DNA of 64,000 nucleotides, taken from Candidatus Oxydemutator sp. GTDB lineage: Bacteria > Pseudomonadota > Gammaproteobacteria > Poriferisulfidales > Oxydemutatoraceae. Under the pieces are notes generated by a model. The model was given only the letters and a program-made list of their open reading frames with translations. It did no database searches and had not been told where the DNA came from. Position 1 is the first letter of the stretch, and the number at the start of each line of letters is the position of its first letter. The DNA lies in assembly GCA_965203445.1 (NCBI GenBank), contig OZ241883.1, forward strand, positions 2,272,001 to 2,336,000, read 5' to 3'. A program made the translations under genes and the position numbers. Below are positions 6,281 to 18,638 of this stretch, in pieces.

Positions 6281-6398
6281 GCCTGGCGGTGTCCTACTCT
6301 CACACGGGGAGGCCCCGCACTACCATCGGCGATGTGCCGTTTCACTTCCGAGTTCGGAATGGGATCGGGTGGTACCAGCACTCTATGGCCGCCAGGCA
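6281..6398 (-). rRNA. rrf: 5S ribosomal RNA (stand-alone)
   Basis: Minus strand TGCCTGGCGGCCATAG...CCCGATCCCATTCCGAACTCGGAAGTGAAAC...GATGGTAGTG...GAGAGTAGGACACCGCCAGGC. Confidence 0.97.
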
Positions 6399-6589: not shown

Positions 6590-6811
6590 TGTCAAACCGA
6601 AGCACAAATGTCCTATTGTTTCCAAAGCGCAGATGTCCTGTTGTTGGCAGGGCTTAGCGCTTTCATGGTCTCCCCGCCAGCGTCTCCACGGGTGATCCGG
6701 CGCCGGTCTGTGGCCTGAACCGCAGCGCCGCCTGGTTGTCGCCTTATCCACTACAGATGGCAATTGTTTTGCGTCCACTGGCGCCGCCGGTGCCTCGCCC
6801 AGGCGATGCAC
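6590..6811 (-). mobile_element. ISNCY/IS1202-like transposon right-end remnant
   Basis: Residual ORF with a GHRPAPDHPWRR C-terminal motif; end ...TTTGACA preceded by two copies of AGGACATyTGyGCTT. Confidence 0.6.
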
Positions 6812-7172
6812 CTAGTAGGCAGTTCGCGCGTGTTTCAGTTGTTGAGGGATTGGCTATACTGGTGATGCTACGGGAAAGCGATCGCCCTTCGATCCGAGGA
6901 GAAGTTTCAGTTGTTGAGGGACTGGCTATACTGGTGATGCTGCTATCTGCGGGCGCGCGGGCACGGGCAGATCGGGTTTCAGTTGTTGAGGGATTGGCTA
7001 TACTGGTGATGCGCCGCCGCGCGCGAGACCGACGCCGAGGATACCGCATGTTTCAGTTGTTGAGGGATTGGCTATACTGGTGATGCCGAGGGGTACGCGG
7101 GGTAGGCGCTTGCGGACGGGCAGGGTTGTGATACACTTCGCCCGTCACTCTTTGGGATTGGTTATACTGGTT

Positions 7173-7274
7173 TGAGGGCGGTGACGCCATCTTCTGCGGG
7201 TGGCGGAACCGATGGCAGAAGATGTGCAAGCGTCAGGAGACCGTCCTCCTCCTGCAATTTAGTAGCCGCCCTCA
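7173..7274. ncRNA. Putative multibranch structured RNA inside the array insert
   Basis: Stems TGAGGGCGG/CCGCCCTCA, CATCTTCTGC/GCAGAAGATG, CAGGAG/CTCCTG; TATACT box at 7163-7168 just upstream on +. Confidence 0.45.
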
Positions 7275-7604
7275 TTCCTTTTGTTTCGCCCTTTTTCTTT
7301 GGTACAGCAGAATCCCGACGCGGCGCCTGTCAATGTATTCCCACTTCGCGCGCAGCACGGTCACAAACACCGAGCCGTCCTCGTGCTCCTGCGCGACCCC
7401 GAGAATGGGACGCGCCTTGTCCTCGCCTCGGAACACCTTGATATAGTGCCTGCGGTATTCGCCTGGCCACGAATACCAGGCCAGCCACTCCTCGTCGGCA
7501 TCCTTCAGCGTCGGTAAATAGAAGTTTGCGTATCGCTCGCGCCAAGTGCGCCTCCCCTTTTTGCCGACGACGACGTGGGTTGCGCCCCCCCAGCCGAATC
7601 TCAC
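7272..7604 (-). CDS. PBECR2-like nuclease domain (MuF C-terminal toxin-like), probably an N-truncated fragment inside the array
   Basis: RERY..YLPTLKDADEEW...YRRHYIKVF...YIDRRRVGILLYQR pattern; the frame stays open up to the repeat at 7636. Confidence 0.6.
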   Translation of the reverse strand: MRFGWGGATHVVVGKKGRRTWRERYANFYLPTLKDADEEWLAWYSWPGEYRRHYIKVFRGEDKARPILGVAQEHEDGSVFVTVLRAKWEYIDRRRVGILLYQRKRAKQKE

Positions 7605-10600
7605 GCCCCCGGCGGGCTCTCCCCGCGTTTTGATGGTTTCAGTTGTTGAGGGATTGGCTATACTGGTGATGCGGTCGGCGCCGGTGGCGAACCACCAGAA
7701 CTTGCGGTTTCAGTTGTTGAGGGATTGGCTATACTGGTGATGCCGAAATCCAGGGGCGCGTGCTCGCGCCCGACGACGGGTTTCAGTTGTTGAGGGATTG
7801 GCTATACTGGTGATGCAGAGGTTTCCTTTGCCGAGTTGGACAAGCGTTGGGGTTTCAGTTGTTGAGGGATTGGCTATACTGGTGATGCGCTTGTGCCAAC
7901 GCCTGCGCACGCGGCGCATTGATGTTTCAGTTGTTGAGGGATTGGCTATACTGGTGATGCCTTTTGCTCGACGCCCTGCAACATTTCCACGTTCGTTTCA
8001 GTTGTTGAGGGATTGGCTATACTGGTGATGCCGCAGCGCGCCGAAGTTCCGCAGCACCCACTCCACGTTTCAGTTGTTGAGGGATTGGCTATACTGGTGA
8101 TGCCCGGCGCCGGCAGCGCGAGCGGCGGCAGGTCAATCGTTTCAGTTGTTGAGGGATTGGCTATACTGGTGATGCCGACGACGCGCTCTACGACGCGGAG
8201 CTTCATGAGTTTCAGTTGTTGAGGGATTGGCTATACTGGTGATGCGATCGCGCAGATGCCGAAGGCCGACATCTATGGCGTTTCAGTTGTTGAGGGATTG
8301 GCTATACTGGTGATGCCGCAAGGTCAAGACTTCCGCGGCGCATAGCCGACGCCAGGCGCATAGCCGACACGGCTATACTGGTGATGCCGCAAGGTCAAGA
8401 CTTCCGCCCCAGGTTTGTGGATGTTTCAGTTGTTGAGGGATTGGCTATACTGGTGATGCTGTTTGGTGTTGTCGAGCGCGGTGGCAGAACTGGTGTTTCA
8501 GTTGTTGAGGGATTGGCTATACTGGTGATGCATACCCGCCCGGCCAATACCACTATATCCCCGGGTAGTTTCAGTTGTTGAGGGATTGGCTATACTGGTG
8601 ATGCGTCAAGTATGGGCGTTCGACGGCCTCCAGCCTATGTTTCAGTTGTTGAGGGATTGGCTATACTGGTGATGCACGGCGCAGGGGAAAACGCGCCTGA
8701 GGTTATGCCGTGTTTCAGTTGTTGAGGGATTGGCTATACTGGTGATGCGGCGCGCTGACTTTGTTCTTGGTCACCTTCGCGGTTTCAGTTGTTGAGGGAT
8801 TGGCTATACTGGTGATGCTCTCACAAACAGTCTGGCCGCGTTTCACATCCCAGTTTCAGTTGTTGAGGGATTGGCTATACTGGTGATGCCGCGTTGGCCG
8901 ACACCGCCGCGCGTGTGCTCGGCAGTTTCAGTTGTTGAGGGATTGGCTATACTGGTGATGCTGATGAAGGCGATTGTGGACATGAGGCCGGCGCCGTTTC
9001 AGTTGTTGAGGGATTGGCTATACTGGTGATGGCCGCGACTGGCGATCAATGCGTGGCGGGGAAGCCGCGTTTCAGTTGTTGAGGGATTGGCTATACTGGT
9101 GATGCTGGGTGTTCGCCAAATCGAAATACGCGGTCAACGCAGTTTCAGTTGTTGAGGGATTGGCTATACTGGTGATGCGAAGTGATCCGCAAGTTCCCCG
9201 CGCACATGACAAGTTTCAGTTGTTGAGGGATTGGCTATACTGGTGATGCCTCCAGCATGGCTTTCTGTTTCGAGTCCAGCCCGCGTTTCAGTTGTTGAGG
9301 GATTGGCTATACTGGTGATGCAGCTCTACACCTCCGTCGTGGCAAATAATGTCCGGAGTTTCAGTTGTTGAGGGATTGGCTATACTGGTGATGCTCCCGT
9401 GCGCGTTCCGCTGGTCGAAAAGAGGCGGCGTTTCAGTTGTTGAGGGATTGGCTATACTGGTGATGCTGTCGTACACGAGCGACGACGGCGACAAGTTTTA
9501 TCGTTTCAGTTGTTGAGGGATTGGCTATACTGGTGATGCATCCCGACTCGTCCGGCAGTCTTTGGGCTCAGGGGTTTCAGTTGTTGAGGGATTGGCTATA
9601 CTGGTGATGCTGCGCTCGGATGGCTGGCGGCGTCGAAGGTCTTGACGTTTCAGTTGTTGAGGGATTGGCTATACTGGTGATGCGCGGGAGGTGATGACGG
9701 CCCTTTCCGAAAACGTGTAGTTTCAGTTGTTGAGGGATTGGCTATACTGGTGATGCATAAAGCAAGGTGTTGATGAGACTATTAGTTTCGGGTTTCAGTT
9801 GTTGAGGGATTGGCTATACTGGTGATGCAATCTCGAAGTGGACATCGCCGACCTGCTGAACGAGCAGTTTCAGTTGTTGAGGGATTGGCTATACTGGTGA
9901 TGCCGTAGCCGCACAAAGATTAAACAGAAAATGGATGTTTCAGTTGTTGAGGGATTGGCTATACTGGTGATGCCGGCGCCGACCCCGCCCCCGGATCCCG
10001 TCCGCGACCGTTTCAGTTGTTGAGGGATTGGCTATACTGGTGATGCGCTGGACCTTCTGCACGAGGCGGCGGTCGGCGCAGGTTTCAGTTGTTGAGGGAT
10101 TGGCTATACTGGTGATGCGTGATGCGCGCTCTTGACCTCTTCTGCGGCGTCGGGTTTCAGTTGTTGAGGGATTGGCTATACTGGTGATGCTTAGAAGTGA
10201 AACAATTATGGTTCGAGGACGCCAGTTTCAGTTGTTGAGGGATTGGCTATACTGGTGATGCGGACGGCACGGCAATCAGAATAAAAGACGTACCGAGTTT
10301 CAGTTGTTGAGGGATTGGCTATACTGGTGATGCCGGTGATAGAGAGAATCAAGAGGGAGGAAAAGTGAGTTTCAGTTGTTGAGGGATTGGCTATACTGGT
10401 GATGCGGCACGTTTGCAGGCACGACCTTGTCGGCGGCACGTTTCAGTTGTTGAGGGATTGGCTATACTGGTGATGCGCGGCTACGCCGTTCGGCCAGGGC
10501 ACCAGGGTCTGTTTCAGTTGTTGAGGGATTGGCTATACTGGTGATGCCGGGGCCGCCGCCGACGTTCCCTTTGTCTCAACAAGTTTCAGTTGTTGAGGGA

Positions 10601-10691
10601 TTGGCTATACTGGTGATGCAGAAAGGCACGCAGAGTTCAGAGATGCTTATCGCAGTTTCAGTTGTTGAGGGATTGGCTATACTGGTGATGC

Positions 10692-10784
10692 CCCATCCCA
10701 AGCCCTTGTTTTACAAGGGCTTGGGATATTTCACAGGGGGCAGAATTTTCGCAAGTAGAGCTATTGCACCAAAGCACGGCGAAT
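10692..10784. promoter_or_regulatory. CRISPR leader with a long palindrome
   Basis: Lower GC; ATCCCAAGCCCTTGT-TTT-ACAAGGGCTTGGGAT next to the last repeat. Confidence 0.65.
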
Positions 10785-10812
10785 TTGCGAAAAGTAACGA
10801 TTGTGCTACGAT
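10785..10812 (+). promoter_or_regulatory. Promoter of tracrRNA-1
   Basis: TTGCGA-N16-TACGAT with an extended -10 TG. Confidence 0.65.
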
Positions 10813-10819
10813 CATGACT

Positions 10820-10946
10820 CCAGTATAGCCAATTCTTGATACTCTGTAATCATAAAAAAGTATCTTGAACGGACCTCTGCATTTTTGCACGTCTGCCTTC
10901 ACTCGATGAAGGATTAAGAAACCGCCTCCGGGCGGTTTCTTTTTTT
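10820..10946 (+). ncRNA. tracrRNA-1, type II-B (Francisella-like)
   Basis: Anti-repeat CCAGTATAGCCAAT, then CTCTGTAATCAT-AAAAGTAT-TTGAACGGACCTCTG-CACGTCTG resembling the FnCas9 tracrRNA as recalled; ends in a terminator. Confidence 0.85.
10916..10946 (+). terminator. Intrinsic terminator (possibly bidirectional, also serving cas4)
   Basis: AAGAAACCGCC-TCCG-GGCGGTTTCTT plus T-run. Confidence 0.85.
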
Positions 10947-10953
10947 CCGACTC

Positions 10954-11547
10954 TCACAATCGGTCATTACAAAAATTCACGTATTCGCAGGTGCAGCACT
11001 GGGCGACCGTCGCACTCGATTCCGGCTTCAGTCCACGCCGCAGCATCCGCCTGATTTTATCCGCCACCTCTGCAACCAGCCGACGCTTGTCCGCGTCAAT
11101 GTCAATCGTATGCAGAACCTTCCCTTTCCCGACCAAGAATCCGGCCGTGCTCGGCTTGGAAAAATGCTCCTCTAACAGCAAGGCATAAGCCGCCAGTTGC
11201 AGTTGGTCGCCGCGCTTCCCGCGGTTTGCGGAAAGCTTGAACTCGACGGCGTACACCGCCTCGTCGGTTTCCACCGCCATGTCCGCGATGCCATGCAGTC
11301 CCAACGCATCGCTGCGCACCGCCAGATTGTGATGGGTTTTCCCGCTCCGCAAATTGAATCTGGAGAGATTGCGACGCTGCCATAATTTTTCCTCTGCCCG
11401 GTGGAAGTGCTCTCCCTGCCCGACCCAGACGGGGCGATGAAAAGCAACATCGGTCAACTCCATGTAATACACGACCCGCGGGCAGTAGCACCACTGCCGG
11501 ATTAAATTTACCGGAATGCTATATGGCAAGGGTTTCCTCCCAATCAT
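10954..11547 (-). CDS. cas4: CRISPR-associated exonuclease Cas4
   Basis: QWCYCPR, GIAD, VEFK, QLAAYA, CCTCEYVNFC Fe-S cysteines; start may be as far up as 11574. Confidence 0.93.
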   Translation of the reverse strand: MIGRKPLPYSIPVNLIRQWCYCPRVVYYMELTDVAFHRPVWVGQGEHFHRAEEKLWQRRNLSRFNLRSGKTHHNLAVRSDALGLHGIADMAVETDEAVYAVEFKLSANRGKRGDQLQLAAYALLLEEHFSKPSTAGFLVGKGKVLHTIDIDADKRRLVAEVADKIRRMLRRGLKPESSATVAQCCTCEYVNFCNDRL

Positions 11548-11821
11548 GGAAATCGCTCTTTTCGTGGCCGACAAAATAACTCCGCCCCCGCCCGTTGAAG
11601 TTGGTATGCGTAATAAATGCCTTGTCCGCCTGCCCCAGGCTATCGTGCAGGTAGCGTTTAATCGCCTCCAGCTCCGCCAGCGTCAGATACCCCCAAAACA
11701 CCGACTTCTGCACGGCTCTGAGCCCGTGCTTCCCCAACTCCATAAAAACGCGGGCGCGCGTTTTATTGTCTTCCACGTCGTAGCTGACCAGATACTCCTG
11801 CCGCAATGGATAATTCTTCAT
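11519..11821 (-). CDS. cas2: CRISPR-associated Cas2
   Basis: YLVSYDVEDNKTR, VQKSVFWG. Confidence 0.95.
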   Translation of the reverse strand: MKNYPLRQEYLVSYDVEDNKTRARVFMELGKHGLRAVQKSVFWGYLTLAELEAIKRYLHDSLGQADKAFITHTNFNGRGRSYFVGHEKSDFHDWEETLAI

Positions 11822-11830
11822 GCCGCCAAA

Positions 11831-12787
11831 TCACCACTTGAACAAATAAGGCCGATAGTTTTGCTCGCCGTAGAAATGACCGCACAAACGATAAACTTGG
11901 CGCTGGATAATATGTTCCAATTTGTGCTTCTTTCTGCGATACGTGTATTTCTTGGCGCACGTTTTCTGTATTTCCCCTATCAACGCCTTCTTCAGGGCGA
12001 CATCCAGAACCGTTCGCCCCTCGCTGCGGGAGCGCAACTTGACTACGGCGCGATCAACCACCCACGCGCGGTATTCTTCCATGACGTCGAGCACCAGCGC
12101 CATTTTCCCCGGCCGCCGGACGTGCATGACGCCGAGATAAGGCTCCAGCCCGGCGTTGATAATCGCGCTCAGGATATAACTGCTCAACACCGCGTAACCG
12201 AGATTGAGCATGGCGTTGTTGATTTCCCCGCTTCCCCGCCCCTCGCGCCTCGTGAACGAAGCCGAAAACAGCCGCGCTTGCCGCAAACCCTGAAAATAGG
12301 CATTGGCGCCGGCACCCTCGAAACCGAGCAAGGTCTCGAGGTCTCTCGCGTGTGGCGCCTTGTCCGCGTGTGCCCGCAATTCATCGGCGGCGGAGCGCAG
12401 AAACGGATGCCTGTGATATTTGTCGAGATGGTTCAGCACGGCGCGCTGATTTTTCAGTTTTGCGACGACGATCCTCCGCGCCAGCGGCATCGTGTCGCGC
12501 TGGCAAAAAGCCATCTGCGCCTGGCGCACCGCCACCACACCGTGTTGCGACTGTCCCAAAATCGCCGAGTGTGCGACACCGCGAAAATCCAAAAAAAATA
12601 ACTTGATGCCGCGGCTGCTGAAAGCCTCGATCAGATCGCTCGATATGCTGACGCCGCGTTTGGCGATGGAGACGGTGCACAGGCGATTGAGCGGATAGTG
12701 CCTGCTTTCTCCATCCTGCCTGACCACCAAGCGATGGCTGTTCAGCCCCAAAAAAGCCCCATAGTCGCCGATGACAAGGTGTTTCAT
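11831..12787 (-). CDS. cas1: CRISPR-associated endonuclease Cas1
   Basis: LLGFEGAGANAYF, NAMLNLGY, GLEPYLGVMH, LDVMEEYR; 318 aa. Confidence 0.96.
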   Translation of the reverse strand: MKHLVIGDYGAFLGLNSHRLVVRQDGESRHYPLNRLCTVSIAKRGVSISSDLIEAFSSRGIKLFFLDFRGVAHSAILGQSQHGVVAVRQAQMAFCQRDTMPLARRIVVAKLKNQRAVLNHLDKYHRHPFLRSAADELRAHADKAPHARDLETLLGFEGAGANAYFQGLRQARLFSASFTRREGRGSGEINNAMLNLGYAVLSSYILSAIINAGLEPYLGVMHVRRPGKMALVLDVMEEYRAWVVDRAVVKLRSRSEGRTVLDVALKKALIGEIQKTCAKKYTYRRKKHKLEHIIQRQVYRLCGHFYGEQNYRPYLFKW

Positions 12788-12880: not shown

Positions 12881-13123
12881 ATGACCAAAGAAAACATCGG
12901 ATCTTACGAGGCGAAAACGAAGCTGCCCGAACTGTTGAGGCGGGTGCAGGCGGGCGAGGCCTTTACGATAACCAGACGTGGCAAGCCCATAGCGGACCTG
13001 CTGCCCAGCCAGGCCGGGGCGCGACAAAAGACGGCGGCCGCCATTGACAACATCGCTGCCATGGGCAAACGGACGGTCTCCGAGCGTCGCCTGAAAGAAT
13101 ATAGAGACAAAGGCCGCGAGTGA
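12881..13123 (+). CDS. Phd/YefM family antitoxin
   Basis: IGSYEAKTKLPELLRRVQAGE.FTITRRGKPIADL. Confidence 0.9.
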   Translation: MTKENIGSYEAKTKLPELLRRVQAGEAFTITRRGKPIADLLPSQAGARQKTAAAIDNIAAMGKRTVSERRLKEYRDKGRE

Positions 13124-13545
13124 CGACCTTCGTGCTGGATAATTCAGTGGCAATGCGTTGGCTGCTCGCAACTCCCAGCCCTTCGGGGCAGAAGTATGCC
13201 GGGAAGGTCCTGCAAAGCATGAAAGACGCGGACGCGCTCGTGCCCGCGCTCTGGCACCTCGAAGCGGCCAATGTCCTGCTCCACGCCGAAAGAGACGGCC
13301 AGATAACGACCGGCCAGGCACAAGCGTTTGTCTCACAACTGAAAAATCTGCCCATTACGATTGATTCACCGACCCAGACAAATTCGGTCGACCGAATTAT
13401 GGCGCTGGCTCGGTCATACAACCTCAGCAGTTACGACGCCGCCTATCTGGAGATTGCCACCCGCAATTCGGTACGGCTCGCCACCCTGGACAGATCGCTG
13501 GCAAAAGCAGCGAGGAAAGCGGGAGTAGGTATCTATCTGAAATAA
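13120..13545 (+). CDS. vapC: VapC/PIN-domain toxin
   Basis: FVLDNSVAMRW, WHLEAANVL, SSYDAAYLE, LATLD; coupled to the antitoxin. Confidence 0.9.
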   Translation: MTTFVLDNSVAMRWLLATPSPSGQKYAGKVLQSMKDADALVPALWHLEAANVLLHAERDGQITTGQAQAFVSQLKNLPITIDSPTQTNSVDRIMALARSYNLSSYDAAYLEIATRNSVRLATLDRSLAKAARKAGVGIYLK

Positions 13546-13561: not shown

Positions 13562-13828
13562 TCAAGTAGTCTTCGCCTTCAGCGGGAACCGCGCAGGATT
13601 TCGGATGATTTCTCTGCTCAGATCAACGTCTATCATCGGCCAGTAATAATGATCCGCAGATAATTGCTCCACTTTAAGGATCGCCTCAACGGGCTGCCCC
13701 TTGAACCAGGGAAAATCCTCGTAGGACAGAAATAACTCCTCATCATGTGCAAGCAGCCATATACCGTGGGTAGATATATGGGTAACTTCAACTTCTGAAG
13801 TAGTCTTTCCAGGCATTGATGAGTTCAT
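13562..13828 (-). CDS. DUF2442 domain protein
   Basis: EVTHISTHGIWL, FLSYEDFPWF, YYWPMIDVDLS, PARFPL. Confidence 0.8.
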   Translation of the reverse strand: MNSSMPGKTTSEVEVTHISTHGIWLLAHDEELFLSYEDFPWFKGQPVEAILKVEQLSADHYYWPMIDVDLSREIIRNPARFPLKAKTT

Positions 13829-16800
13829 TGTGATGGTTCTCTATAGATTTCCAATTCCTTATAACCTATCTCAGTTTCTTCCATCGTTTCATCATCCCTA
13901 AGTGTTGCTCGGGGACCCAGTTTGGTGATAGCCCACGGCCCACTTTTCCCATCAATACGAACCCTATCACCCCGTTTGAATATTTTGAGTATTTTATAAT
14001 TCACTGGAAGTTCTTTATCTATTTCATTTCTTTCATAAACTGGCTGAGACTTATCCTTCCAATAAAACTTATTCGTAATACGAACAGCATCTATTTTATC
14101 TTTTCCATCTTTATTATATTGAATAACCATAACTTTATCCCAAGAAACCGTCCGTCTAAAGTGATGCATGCCTTTTGTATTTTTATCTTTTCTTCGCCAC
14201 ATCTGTTGAACTCCCATGCCCCCTCGGACACCAGGACCCACCCTTACGCAACGAACTGACCGTGTATTCTTGGGGTGTAAAATATGCTCCTGGGGCAGCC
14301 TCAGAAAATAAGAATGCGTAATTGTTCTCTTATCACCGCTTCCATTTGTCATTTCTTTTTTTCTGTCATCCGGCATATCATCGATTTTTTCCCATGCTTT
14401 TTCCATTGCCATCCTGATAGGCTCGGACTGTATATTCCCGATATTCTTTTTTTGAATCTTCTCCAACGGTTTTCTTTGTGTAATCATGCCGTCCAAACAA
14501 CGCAAAGGTTCAGTATCCGTTTTGCTGCATTCGATCTTTCCTTCATTTCTCTTGTCTTCAACATACCAACCCGAAGATTTATCGGGAGCCAACAAATTCC
14601 CTCTGCCGTCTTCTCTTAGATTGATAAAAGCAGGGGCATTTTCCTTCCTTGCCTGCTTACGAACATCACTATTCAAGCGTTTGATCGCTTCCCAATCTAC
14701 ATTTGCTGCCAAGACCACAGCATCAAGGGCATGGTGGAACTCTCTGATGGGATCATCTTTCGCTGGCTCAACAATCACCTTAAACCTTTTCACGGCAATT
14801 TTGGTCTTTATCATAACTTTGATATTCGAGATCTCCCCCGTACTTTTGTCTACAACTTCCACATCGCACCATGGTACATATTTACCATTACCTCTTTTCC
14901 TGTAACACTTCTTCAGTGTCCCAACCAATTTATTACCCTTGACAGATAGCCAATCATTACCTGCTTCCTCATCATTCTTACGATATTTAAGCTTTACAGA
15001 AGCATTAGCACCTTCCAACAATTTACTTAGTTTTTTATCCTTTGAGAAAACATCTTCCAATAACAACTCTAATTCTTGATCAAGCTGTCCTTTTGTCTCA
15101 TAGAGAGTTTCATCTTTCTTTTTTCCACTCGTTTTGCCTTCCTTTACTACTTCAAGGACGAAGTTTTTATTGTTACAGTTCTCTAACCAAAACTGGTTTG
15201 TCCCTACTGCATTATCATCCGGAGTCCCGACAAGCATCACTTTCCCATTATTTTTGTCCGTTCGAATTTCCAGCCAGTCAGTTACCCCTTCATCATAGTC
15301 TTTACAGATAGAAACCTCCCCATCAAATAAATACTCATCCAACTTCAGCTTTGAAAGTTCATATTTGAATTCTTCACCTGCCTTTGTTTTGTATGGATTC
15401 CTAAATCGTATAGCCCGCTTCTGCCGATCCATAAACGGAAACCAGAACCGACGAAGATAAATTGAATCACCTGAACGTATTTTGTGAATCACCTCTGATG
15501 GCAAGTTAAATTCATCCATAAAAGCCTGTTTCAAGAGTTTCGCCCCGAACATGGTGTGCTGTGGGGCAGCAAGCATATCCTCAGGCAGTCTCCTGTCTGC
15601 CTCCAAACGGGATTGAATGAATTTGTGCTTCTCAGGATTATTATTCTCAATCAAAGAAAGGACATTCTTATCCAGAGGCTCCCTCCGGTTGTGCTTATCA
15701 ATATTGCAAATTGAATGACCGATTACTTTATTCCGGGCAATATTTCCCCCACCTTTTGATTTAGGGAACAGATGATCAATATGAGCGTCACTATGCAAAA
15801 ACTCACCACAAAATATGCAACGGCCACCTTGATCCGCCCTAAGCGTGGCCATATCCCCACCCGCCGACTGTTGATACTGTTTCGGCTTGAGCTTCTTCTT
15901 CAGCTTCTTACCTTCACTCTGAGCCAGAGCACTGATATCAAAACGCGCTGTCTCTATACCTACATGTTCAATAGGTATCGGCGAATTTCTGAGGTCTCGT
16001 ACCTCCTGCTCCTTCAACATCTTGCGCACAACAACAGTGATTTTTTCAACTTTCTGCCGTATTGAGGGTGGCGCGTCATCTTTCAATGTTAAAACACGCT
16101 CTTCATGAAGCCTCGCCCATGAATTGCCCTTGGTTTCATCGCGCTCCAAAAGGTTCAGTTTTTGTTCCAGGTGCTTAATACAAAAACCTGCTCTGCCGGG
16201 CTGTTCCCCACAAATAATATCCCTGAGAATATCTTTCTTGCCTCTCGCCTCGTTCTCTGCGGGGAGAACATAGCGATTTCCCCTACTGTTAGTAAAAAAT
16301 TGATTAATAGTTTCCTGATTTTTATTTTTGATAACTCCGTCTAGTTCTTTCACAAACTCCAAACTATTCATCAACTTCTGTATTTCACTCTCATCCAACT
16401 TGTCTTTATTCCCATTGGCACGCCTCACATTCATTTGACGCAACTCAATTTCAAACTGAAGTCTGCGAACGTCTTTCCTGCGCTTTTTAGGGAGATTAAG
16501 TCCGCAACGTGTTCCATCATCGTCAGTAGCTGCCGGGCATTTGCCCATGCTATTGCGGTTGTTGAATCTTTTCTTGCGATATTCACGATTGACTACCTTT
16601 GTTGCTGCCTTAATCCATCGCTTTTTTATTTCTGTAGGGGTAGTACCTGCTCTATGAGCGATTTCACTGGCCTTATTATGAACATCCGCCATTGATTGTT
16701 GCCAATCCTGTTTTATTTTGGCCATAGACAAGATCTGTCTGTTCTGATTGACTTTGCTTTTCTTCAAACCCTGGAAGGTTTCATCCAGGCAAATTTGAAA

Positions 16801-17790
16801 GCGATCCTGCTCCAAGCCACAGGCGACTTTCATCAGGTTTTCCAACCCGCTTAGCATTTCCTCACGATGGCGATTACGATGTGGACGATAAACTTTGCCT
16901 TCCTCAAAAAGCTTCTCACCTGTTTGTAGGCCAAGCATAGTCATAATGCGAGTAACAATTTCTTCTTCCTGAGGTATGGTACTTCCAGCCCCATAGACCA
17001 AACCAAGGCGTTCTTTGATCCAGCTCTTTATATCCTCTGGCACAGCATCTTGAAGTTTTATTTCCAGTGCCTCATAAACCACTTCCTGCCTGGCAAGCTC
17101 CTCCATGACTGAAGAATCTTTTTCGGCTTTTTTTCTGAGATCGTGAATCTCTTTAGCTTTCTCATAAAGCTCACCCAGGCAGCTCCGTTCCTCTTTTATT
17201 TTTATAAAGGAAACAGTTTTGTCAGAAAATTTTTGAGACTCACTATGCCTTGAACGCCTGTTGAATTCTTGTCTTGCGTTGTCTTGGGCTTGTTTGTATT
17301 CCTCGTCTGATTCATTCTTGTATTTCCTACGCCCTTTCTCGTTAAATTCCGCGGGCGCATTAAATTCCTGAAGAAGAATCCTGTCAACTTCTTTAACTAT
17401 TAGAGGGCATTTAGGAGATTTACCATCATCAGTTTTGACAACGAGCAATTCAAGCAAGCTCGCATAGTCCCATCCACGATAATGGGCTAGCGCATAAAGG
17501 CGGTTTCCAAGAGAAGCCTTATCTCTCTCAGTCTGTTTCTCCCCCGGTTTCGCATTTCTTGGCTCCAACCCCATGCCTTTAAGAAGCGCATAGAAGTCGC
17601 GTAGCCGCCTCGCCTTGGAAAGTTTCCGCCTGCGTTGTCCCCTGTTGACGCGACGTTTTTGGAGAGTATCCGATAGCGTAGTGCGATGTTTGAGAACTTT
17701 ATAATCCAGGACTTCATTACTTGAACTCAACAAGCCAACGCCTGTATATGCGTAACCGAAGTCAATCCCTAATCTGAAGGACTTATTCAT
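13825..17790 (-). CDS. cas9: Type II CRISPR effector Cas9 (Cas9d/II-D-like core with large insertions), ~1321 aa
   Basis: RuvC-I LGIDFG..YTG, Arg-rich bridge helix, RuvC-II GIETARFD, HNH GRCIFCG..HIDHLFP..CN..K, RuvC-III HHALDA; ATG 17790 with AGGTGG RBS. Confidence 0.9.
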   Translation of the reverse strand: MNKSFRLGIDFGYAYTGVGLLSSSNEVLDYKVLKHRTTLSDTLQKRRVNRGQRRRKLSKARRLRDFYALLKGMGLEPRNAKPGEKQTERDKASLGNRLYALAHYRGWDYASLLELLVVKTDDGKSPKCPLIVKEVDRILLQEFNAPAEFNEKGRRKYKNESDEEYKQAQDNARQEFNRRSRHSESQKFSDKTVSFIKIKEERSCLGELYEKAKEIHDLRKKAEKDSSVMEELARQEVVYEALEIKLQDAVPEDIKSWIKERLGLVYGAGSTIPQEEEIVTRIMTMLGLQTGEKLFEEGKVYRPHRNRHREEMLSGLENLMKVACGLEQDRFQICLDETFQGLKKSKVNQNRQILSMAKIKQDWQQSMADVHNKASEIAHRAGTTPTEIKKRWIKAATKVVNREYRKKRFNNRNSMGKCPAATDDDGTRCGLNLPKKRRKDVRRLQFEIELRQMNVRRANGNKDKLDESEIQKLMNSLEFVKELDGVIKNKNQETINQFFTNSRGNRYVLPAENEARGKKDILRDIICGEQPGRAGFCIKHLEQKLNLLERDETKGNSWARLHEERVLTLKDDAPPSIRQKVEKITVVVRKMLKEQEVRDLRNSPIPIEHVGIETARFDISALAQSEGKKLKKKLKPKQYQQSAGGDMATLRADQGGRCIFCGEFLHSDAHIDHLFPKSKGGGNIARNKVIGHSICNIDKHNRREPLDKNVLSLIENNNPEKHKFIQSRLEADRRLPEDMLAAPQHTMFGAKLLKQAFMDEFNLPSEVIHKIRSGDSIYLRRFWFPFMDRQKRAIRFRNPYKTKAGEEFKYELSKLKLDEYLFDGEVSICKDYDEGVTDWLEIRTDKNNGKVMLVGTPDDNAVGTNQFWLENCNNKNFVLEVVKEGKTSGKKKDETLYETKGQLDQELELLLEDVFSKDKKLSKLLEGANASVKLKYRKNDEEAGNDWLSVKGNKLVGTLKKCYRKRGNGKYVPWCDVEVVDKSTGEISNIKVMIKTKIAVKRFKVIVEPAKDDPIREFHHALDAVVLAANVDWEAIKRLNSDVRKQARKENAPAFINLREDGRGNLLAPDKSSGWYVEDKRNEGKIECSKTDTEPLRCLDGMITQRKPLEKIQKKNIGNIQSEPIRMAMEKAWEKIDDMPDDRKKEMTNGSGDKRTITHSYFLRLPQEHILHPKNTRSVRCVRVGPGVRGGMGVQQMWRRKDKNTKGMHHFRRTVSWDKVMVIQYNKDGKDKIDAVRITNKFYWKDKSQPVYERNEIDKELPVNYKILKIFKRGDRVRIDGKSGPWAITKLGPRATLRDDETMEETEIGYKELEIYREPSQ

Positions 17791-17804
17791 AACCCACCTG
17801 AATG

Positions 17805-17939
17805 TAAAACAATACCCTGCATAAAGCAGGGTATTGTAGATTTTGCTCGCCCTCAAGCGGTGACTTACTGAAAACAGAGCATCGCCTGCAAAAAACGATG
17901 GTGCCAGCAAGCACCTCGGACTTTTTTCAGTTGTTGAGG
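17805..17939 (-). ncRNA. tracrRNA-2 candidate upstream of cas9
   Basis: 15-nt perfect anti-repeat CCTCAACAACTGAAA (17925-17939), several hairpins, terminator ACAATACCCTGC/GCAGGGTATTGT followed by TTT. Confidence 0.75.
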
Positions 17940-17943
17940 CCTG

Positions 17944-17971
17944 ATTGTAACGACGAAGAAAAAACTGTCAA
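17944..17971 (-). promoter_or_regulatory. Promoter of tracrRNA-2/cas9
   Basis: TTGACA-N16-TACAAT directly upstream of the anti-repeat. Confidence 0.8.
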
Positions 17972-17987
17972 GCCCTGATGTGTTGTT

Positions 17988-18638
17988 CTACATTGGCGTC
18001 GCAGGGGTTGCGAAGTCGTCGTCGTAGAAATAGTGTCCCTTCAGCCGTTTGACGTTGAAAATGAGTATTTCGCTATGGAACAGTATGCCGTCGAACACGT
18101 TCTTCGGGAGGCTGATTATCGAGCATATCTCGGGATAAGTGCCGTCTACAAACTTGATCCAGCGCCTCGATTGTTGCGTCTGGTTCAGGCGCAATCCGTA
18201 AGGGGTGAACAGCACAATCGGGATGCTTTTGCCGAACAGTTCTATCGCTTTTTGCAGCCACACTTCCGGCAGCAATGGCCTGCCACCATAATTTTCTACC
18301 AGATGCGCTTTCGTCTTCGGGTCAATGTTGAACGGGGGGTTCATTATCACGAGGCCAGGCTCCTTCAGCTCTCCCTTCTTTACCTTCAGATAATTCCTGA
18401 CCCGCGTCCTCGGAAAACCCTGCTTTTCTATATCAATGCCGACAACGTCAAACCCGTTCTCCTCGAAAGGCCGCAGCAACGAACCCTCGCCCACGCACGG
18501 GTCGAGCACCGGCTTCGACTTGTCAATGCGCTTGCCGACCAGTTCATACAGGAACCGGCTGACACCTTCCGGCGTCTGTATCGTGGATTTCTTTTGTCGG
18601 TTGTAAAAATTATTGCGATCAACTCTGTACATCGTCAT
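17988..18638 (-). CDS. Solitary N6-adenine DNA methyltransferase
   Basis: VLDPCVGEG (motif I) and MNPPF (motif IV); GGAGGAG RBS. Confidence 0.8.
   Translation of the reverse strand: MTMYRVDRNNFYNRQKKSTIQTPEGVSRFLYELVGKRIDKSKPVLDPCVGEGSLLRPFEENGFDVVGIDIEKQGFPRTRVRNYLKVKKGELKEPGLVIMNPPFNIDPKTKAHLVENYGGRPLLPEVWLQKAIELFGKSIPIVLFTPYGLRLNQTQQSRRWIKFVDGTYPEICSIISLPKNVFDGILFHSEILIFNVKRLKGHYFYDDDFATPATPM

Follow-up and report, generated by a model that had tools for sequence, protein, structure and literature searches.

An anti-repeat matched to the local CRISPR repeat at the predicted start of a Cas9d-like nuclease transcript in a gammaproteobacterium

We analysed a window of 64,000 nt (the whole stretch of contig OZ241883.1 considered here) from the genome of the gammaproteobacterium Candidatus Oxydemutator sp. 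The window holds a CRISPR-Cas island with a G+C content of 42–59%, compared with 68% for the genome, whose features are collected in Table 1. The plus strand carries 46 copies of a 37-nt repeat in two blocks, and the spacers of the two arrays are 33–38 nt long, with 62% GC. The gap of ~550 nt that splits the array (7087-7635) contains half of a degenerate repeat, and a minus-strand ORF inside it (7272-7604) encodes a PBECR2 nuclease-like domain. Near its 3' end, at nt 24-29, the repeat reads TATACT, which resembles a -10 box; the repeat of the related locus described below has the 3' end TGCTACACT, likewise -10-like. Neisseria repeats, each of which starts a crRNA, carry a similar -10-like box. 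A scan of positions 9700-10830 called no promoters inside the window repeats.

Table 1. Positions of the features of the CRISPR-Cas island in the window; the last row refers to the related locus and its own coordinates.
Feature	Position	Strand	Description
5S rRNA gene	6281-6396	-	just before the array
CRISPR array 1	6832-7086	+	4 repeats of 37 nt
Degenerate repeat half	7154-7171		matches repeat nt 15-32
CRISPR array 2	7636-10691	+	42 repeats
Array-side tracrRNA (tracrRNA-1)	10820-10945	+	just 3' of the last repeat; 11-bp terminator
cas4	10954-11574	-	adaptation gene
cas2	11519-11821	-	adaptation gene
cas1	11831-12787	-	adaptation gene
Phd/YefM antitoxin gene	12881-13123	+
PIN-domain toxin gene	13120-13545	+
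DUF2442 gene	13562-13828	-	88 aa; 4-nt overlap with the cas9 stop codon
cas9	13825-17790	-	1321 aa, Cas9d-like; ATG 17790-17788
12-bp hairpin, then TTT	17837-17809 (with T-run to 17805)	-	terminator-like end of the leader RNA
Hairpin 2 of the minimum-energy fold	17844-17881	-	contains GUUUUCAGU and UUGAGGG
CATCG/CGATG hairpin	17900-17880	-	from the hairpin scan
Hairpin 1, GGTGC/GCACC	17915-17900 (with T6: 17890-17915)	-	followed by ATCG and T6; from scan and fold
A-run and TCCGAGG	17914-17924	-	sole stretch after the anti-repeat conserved with the related locus (AAAATCCCAGG)
Anti-repeat CCTCAACAACTGAAA	17925-17939	-	exact complement of CRISPR repeat nt 2-16
Predicted sigma-70-like promoter	17944-17971	-	TTGACA (17971-17966), 16 nt, TACAAT (17949-17944)
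Related locus (L001), anti-repeat GGTAAGTGAAA	9856-9866	cas9 strand	upstream of cas9; complement of its own repeat nt 2-12, 11 nt

The nuclease was classified by its similarity to Cas9 proteins of solved structure. In a single-sequence search, the only solved relatives at E<=0.001 were six Cas9d (type II-D) chains, at E ~1e-21. A profile of the protein and its relatives (21 relatives) matched Cas9d chains at E 2e-48; its matches to further Cas9 chains and to IscB chains are confined to the HNH region, and at E<=1 they include no II-B Cas9. The NCBIfam Cas9d model gives 114 bits, under its cut-off of 375, and the IscB model 61 bits. By these matches the nuclease is Cas9d-like, as a first-pass annotation of the sequence had named it, and not II-B; it is a distant relative and, at 1321 aa, much larger than Cas9d proteins (~600–970 aa). 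No second cas9 was found among the six large ORFs scanned, of the 52 ORFs of at least 350 aa in the window.

The array is accompanied by a tracrRNA of a different kind. It matches the Rfam family FtrA, which we take to be the Francisella tracrRNA (the Rfam entry is named only 'Francisella sRNA A'). The array-side RNA matches this model (RF02747) over its full length at 41.4 bits (E 6.7e-5), short of the gathering score of 134, and shares identical runs of 12, 13 and 8 bases with the printed FtrA consensus. Its anti-repeat pairs with repeat nt 14-31, including 14 perfect pairs at nt 18-31, and pairs loosely with nt 1-13. A loose lower stem is likewise described for II-B tracrRNAs in the accessible part of PMC6546382, whereas the anti-repeat upstream of cas9 pairs perfectly. 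The locus also resembles II-B loci in layout: according to the accessible parts of PMC6199352 and PMC3737331, these have 37-nt repeats and a tracrRNA on the downstream side of the array, whose transcription in F. novicida runs opposite to that of the cas genes. All three hold in the window. The array-side tracrRNA and its terminator, both on the plus strand, identify this as the crRNA strand.

The cas9 gene has a G+C content of 42% (42–46% together with its leader), compared with 54–57% for cas1, cas2 and cas4. This difference fits a chimeric locus in which the nuclease joined a resident array: the locus may combine a II-B-type array and tracrRNA with a different effector, and the earlier proposal of an RNA adapted to a foreign repeat agrees with such an origin. 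The DUF2442 gene, with 47% GC, is low like cas9 and may be a co-transcribed accessory gene. Between these two genes and cas1, the Phd/YefM–PIN pair (58% GC) lies on the opposite strand and interrupts the cas operon. The cas1-cas2-cas4 module is listed as common to II-D loci in the accessible text of the 2025 classification (PMC12669027).

Upstream of cas9, a scan of positions 17500-18300 detected a single promoter-like site (0.6 expected from shuffles), which agrees with the sigma-70 consensus at 11 of 12 positions and had already been recognised in the first-pass annotation. It was said to lead straight into a 15-nt complement of the repeat. The complementarity is exact; four nucleotides (CAGG) separate it from the -10 hexamer. 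At the canonical distance, transcription would start within the first 1–4 nt of the anti-repeat, so that the RNA may carry 11–15 of its 15 nt; the transcript start is thus predicted at about the first bases of the element. The base that follows the anti-repeat on its 3' side, at 17924, is an A, opposite G1 of the repeat. The part of the repeat addressed by the leader (nt 2-16 in the window, nt 2-12 in the related locus) is the spacer-adjacent end, which is retained in the mature crRNA. A search for the anti-repeat 15-mer with at most one mismatch recovered 47 sites in the window, 46 of them in the arrays and one upstream of cas9, with 0.00 expected from 100 shuffles. At 15 nt it is the longest off-array match to the repeat in the window, compared with 14 nt for the array-side tracrRNA. 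Judged by these counts, the anti-repeat upstream of cas9 is not a product of chance. A 10-nt anti-repeat-like match at 13335-13344 was set aside: it lies within the PIN gene, and by our estimate about three such 10-mers are expected by chance.

The region between the anti-repeat and cas9 is rich in potential terminators. The scan recovered six terminator-like sites in the region, compared with 1.0 expected, and both short hairpins named in the first-pass annotation (GGTGC/GCACC and CATCG/CGATG) are present on the minus strand. Hairpin 1 can be extended through A6:U6 pairing and is terminator-like on both strands. The 12-bp stem that had been placed about 15 nt before the cas9 ATG exists and ends 18 nt 5' of it, and AGGTGGG (17799-17793) is found immediately 5' of the ATG. 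From the start of the anti-repeat to the end of the last T-run (17939-17805) the leader measures 135 nt, the length previously estimated. Leaving aside transcripts that read through from the upstream gene in the same orientation, no other promoter is predicted for cas9, and its expression would therefore need read-through of the leader hairpins, in line with the read-through that had been proposed.

The 135-nt leader folds with a predicted energy of -50.5 kcal/mol (z -4.84), equalled by none of 200 shuffles, and is predicted to leave its first 9 nt mostly unpaired (probability 0.72–1.0). Within hairpin 2, GUUUUCAGU and UUGAGGG resemble both ends of repeat nt 1-17, and an alternative pairing in cis with the anti-repeat is possible. 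The fold in which the anti-repeat is paired within the leader has -45.9 kcal/mol, 4.6 kcal/mol above the minimum; the repeat-like stretch in cis is not seen in the related locus. A search of Rfam matched no family to the leader: among both leaders the hits were at chance level only, the best being STAXI at 18.6 bits (gathering score 40.5), and FtrA gave no match to the window leader at E<=10.

A genome scan for related loci yielded 35 pattern matches, of which one was confirmed (L001); the leader comparison covers this locus alone, with the DNA around 33 other homologous proteins outside it. Searches with tblastn recovered no related loci in plasmids and, in phages, only four HNH-only matches covering 4% of the query. 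The related locus belongs to a gammaproteobacterial metagenome-assembled genome and encodes a Cas9 of 1095 aa that is 38% identical to the window protein. Its array is oriented opposite to cas9, and its repeat is a different 36-mer that has only the initial GTTTCA in common with the window repeat. The cas9 upstream region carries a perfect anti-repeat to the repeat of this locus, GGTAAGTGAAA, and no other off-array stretch of the 23 kb matches that repeat over as great a length (0.02 matches expected). The element agrees with that of the window in its strand, in its register starting from nt 2, in the A opposite G1 (position 9867), and in the A-run and TCCNAGG that follow. TGAAAAAA follows 41 nt after the start of TTGACA, compared with 42 nt in the window. 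Importantly, the two repeats differ at four positions within nt 2-12 (nt 7, 10, 11 and 12), and all four differences are compensated in the leaders, with a single related locus for comparison. These compensated differences argue for a selected pairing function and against a relic.

The best local alignment of the two upstream regions consists of the 3' part of the anti-repeat, the A-run and TCCNAGG, and is equalled by 12 of 1000 shuffles. Beyond TCCNAGG the likeness of the leaders is at chance level (equalled by 315 of 1000 shuffles). The claim that the leader is the cognate tracrRNA of this nuclease therefore divides: it pairs as Cas9d guides do and co-varies with the repeat in the related locus, but its scaffold resembles neither the other leader nor an Rfam family beyond chance. 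Conserved blocks in a global alignment of the leaders (GCTCT...AGGG and others) were dropped as not significant by local-alignment shuffles, and a consensus fold from the two sequences is uninformative. The leader of the related locus is not unusually structured (z +0.89, equalled by 163 of 200 shuffles). The scan called no terminator before its cas9 and no promoter there: TTGACA and TATAAT are perfect hexamers just 12 nt apart, with TTGACA-17-TACCGT as an alternative.

No FtrA-like RNA was found in the related locus at E<=10. The only other anti-repeat there lies directly against the last repeat; its pairing covers nt 13-28, a U-rich tail comes after it, and it may be just an array terminator. 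The window array-side tracrRNA shows no significant likeness to this array-abutting region (equalled by 753 of 1000 shuffles). With an FtrA-type tracrRNA in the window and none in the related locus, the leader anti-repeat would be the partner that stays with this Cas9 clade. The related locus has further features of its own. A Pfam scan of nine other ORFs detected no cas1, cas2 or cas4. A gene for a cyclic-nucleotide-binding protein (13936-14865) lies between the main array and a mini-array (14880-14981). In the mini-array a 30-nt spacer separates one intact repeat from a degenerate one; the degenerate repeat ends in GGGTAAGT and an A-run that resemble the element upstream of cas9. Upstream of the cas9 leader element, at a distance of 100 nt, is the cobalamin riboswitch (9542-9753, minus strand) of a divergent TonB-receptor gene.

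Cofolding with the repeat gave the 15 perfect pairs of the leader an energy of -24.2 kcal/mol, and the array-side tracrRNA a predicted duplex of -32.7 kcal/mol. We rejected duplex energy as a test of specificity, because non-cognate combinations of repeat and leader (-24.4 and -22.7 kcal/mol) score like the cognate ones (-24.2 and -21.5 kcal/mol).

The design of the element can be compared with that of type II-D guides. According to the accessible part of PMC12339737, in the NsCas9d guide a G:A mismatch precedes 17 Watson-Crick pairs and one G.U wobble pair, and 10 bp of this stem can be removed without loss of activity. The 14 MG34 and MG102 guides all start with GUU(U/A)CA, 13 of them with GUUUCA or GUUACA (PMC9755519, supplement file 3). 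Two of these, MG34-1 and MG102-2, when paired by hand, show an A opposite G1 and a near-perfect stem, after which come As and ~100 nt of scaffold with Us at its end (PMC9755519). Type II-D guides and the leader thus share a 5' anti-repeat, perfect pairing from nt 2, an A opposite G1 and As after it; the window is also alike in a repeat that starts GUUUCA, a predicted RNA somewhat longer than 100 nt and a T-run at its end. The stem differs in length, 17 bp in type II-D as against 15 bp in the window leader and 11 bp in that of the related locus. A comparison of the leader with the MG34 and MG102 scaffolds, in which ~100 nt include a central stem and a pseudoknot, was made by eye only and revealed nothing convincing beyond GAAAA.

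A second comparison is offered by IscB. The IscB guide RNA lies on the same strand as the nuclease ORF, and Rfam includes a model of the omega-RNA (HEARO). For CRISPR-associated IscB, a non-coding RNA encoded upstream of the ORF is described in the accessible text of PMC12660989. As with the omega-RNA, the guide-partner RNA of the leader would be encoded directly upstream of the nuclease ORF (PMC12660989); in contrast to it, the leader has no Rfam match at E<=10, and the guide is supplied by a separate array, encoded on the opposite strand. 'Second tracrRNAs' are named as a possibility in the accessible part of one preprint (10.1101/2020.09.02.279885). In the literature searched, a set that excluded bioRxiv and PDF supplements (II-D locus maps) and included sources accessible in part, we found no description of an anti-repeat at the cas9 transcript start together with an array-side tracrRNA.

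Taken together, the findings make it likely that the leader, on the cas9 strand, contains a functional RNA element which pairs with the repeat of the crRNA. As to its role, we tentatively favour, at somewhat less than even confidence, a tracrRNA encoded before cas9 in a II-D-like layout, with cas9 made by read-through. The promoter would fire near the first bases of the anti-repeat, so that the cas9 transcript would begin with it; where transcription ends at the leader hairpins, a small RNA of ~50 or 135 nt would be set free; and this RNA would form the guide-proximal stem with the crRNA and be loaded into the Cas9d-like protein. A fraction of transcripts reading through would provide the cas9 mRNA, and the ratio of guide-partner RNA to nuclease would be fixed by one promoter. 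We infer the transcription, termination, Cas9 binding and read-through coupling of the leader from the arrangement of its signals. The length of 135 nt, the unusually stable fold and the terminal terminator fit a tracrRNA. The same reading draws on the Cas9d guide design seen in both loci (an A opposite G1, then an A-run), on a nuclease that is Cas9d-like and not II-B, and on the precedent of an upstream non-coding RNA in IscB.

Several observations count against this interpretation. The scaffold is not significantly conserved, the leader of the related locus is not unusually structured and no Rfam family matches. The stems are shorter than those of solved Cas9d guides, and a T6 terminator occurs just ~45 nt into the leader RNA. 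Moreover, the window already contains a full array-side tracrRNA, with a Francisella-like scaffold and a predicted duplex stronger than that of the leader; the existence of this first tracrRNA agrees with the first-pass annotation, which had called the leader RNA the second.

The presence of that complete tracrRNA also speaks for a regulatory function of the leader, which we consider the main alternative, though rather unlikely. The 5' anti-repeat of the cas9 mRNA would pair with free crRNA or with the repeats of pre-crRNA, and the pairing would alter termination, stability or RNase III cleavage, so that the output of Cas9 tracks the supply of guides; Cas9 itself would use the array-side tracrRNA only. 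Such a crRNA-sensing leader accounts for the conserved core equally well as a tracrRNA does: conservation is limited to the 5'-terminal anti-repeat, the A-run and TCCNAGG, the first nucleotides of the transcript are predicted to be accessible, transcripts from the promoter reach cas9 only past three terminator-like hairpins, and a cis fold with the repeat-like stretch is available as an alternative. RNA-based feedback on cas9 is known in other forms, as far as the accessible parts of 10.64898/2026.06.01.729453 and PMC10120712 describe it. However, we could derive no switch logic from the folds: transcription passes the first terminator before it reaches the cis partner, and neither fold affects the last terminator. 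The related locus, moreover, lacks both the terminators and the cis repeat-like stretch, and its tracrRNA would then be only the anti-repeat abutting the last repeat. Pairing from nt 2 with an A opposite G1, as in Cas9d guides, would be left unexplained.

It is improbable, in our estimate, that both RNAs act together as a two-tracrRNA system in which the repeat is shared between two anti-repeat RNAs. In both loci the repeat is divided between the two elements, which overlap little or not at all: the leader covers nt 2-16 and the array-side RNA nt 14-31 in the window, and nt 2-12 and 13-28, respectively, in the related locus. With two tracrRNAs, the array-side RNA would serve in pre-crRNA processing or array termination and the leader RNA would provide the Cas9-bound stem, either as a division of labour or within a three-RNA guide complex.

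We regard it as very unlikely that the element is a leftover piece of repeat with no present function, such as an inverted copy of the junction between the array leader and the first repeat. A flank comparison hints at such a copy: the 29 nt beside the element (17895-17923) agree at 17 of 29 positions with the 29 nt that precede array 1 and its first repeat (6803-6831), the best among the 46 repeat flanks (the next has 11) and a level reached by 0.036% of random 29-mers of the window. A relic would not retain a perfect match to a repeat that has since changed, though, and the element of the related locus fits its own repeat in the same place; a comparison by eye found no flank likeness there.

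Least likely of all is autorepression, in which the repeat-like DNA at the cas9 start is a target, or a crRNA-like RNA of scaRNA or tracr-L type, made from either the plus strand or the leader, directs Cas9 to the cas9 promoter without DNA cleavage. In type II-A, Cas9-regulating scaRNAs within cas9 5' UTRs, with targets at the start site, are reported in the accessible part of 10.64898/2026.06.01.729453. As in those systems, a repeat-related element is here co-transcribed in a cas9 leader and feedback on cas9 is plausible; the leader repeat-like stretch (17844-17881) is also preceded by GGCGATGC, which resembles the repeat 3' end. The scaRNA and tracr-L elements nevertheless combine a crRNA-sense repeat with a short promoter-targeting guide, whereas the conserved element on the cas9 strand is antisense to the crRNA and cannot pair with a tracrRNA as a scaRNA does. 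The scan found no plus-strand promoter in 17500-18300, and a 12-nt candidate guide had 15 matches with at most two mismatches (10.4 expected), none near the promoter; the related locus gave the self match only, and no spacer matched the promoter region or its surroundings over more than 11 nt, the chance level. We rejected the scaRNA/tracr-L reading on the sense of the repeat and because no pair of guide and target was found.

IscB is the presumed ancestor of Cas9, and its guide RNA is encoded immediately upstream of its nuclease gene. How the IscB guide RNA was split into crRNA and tracrRNA is an evolutionary question that an anti-repeat in a cas9 leader touches directly. Here, a large Cas9d-like nuclease has an anti-repeat at its own predicted transcript start, and in a distant relative the element is re-matched to the local repeat. 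If the two-tracrRNA system were true, it would represent an extant stage between IscB, with its single upstream guide RNA, and the usual pair of crRNA and tracrRNA. If the leader RNA is the working partner of the nuclease, it would define the guide needed to use this uncharacterised Cas9 clade, and would reveal a simple coupling of guide-partner and nuclease output through terminator read-through. One locus thus poses two testable questions: which of the RNAs serves the nuclease, and how a newly arrived nuclease adapts to an array already in place.
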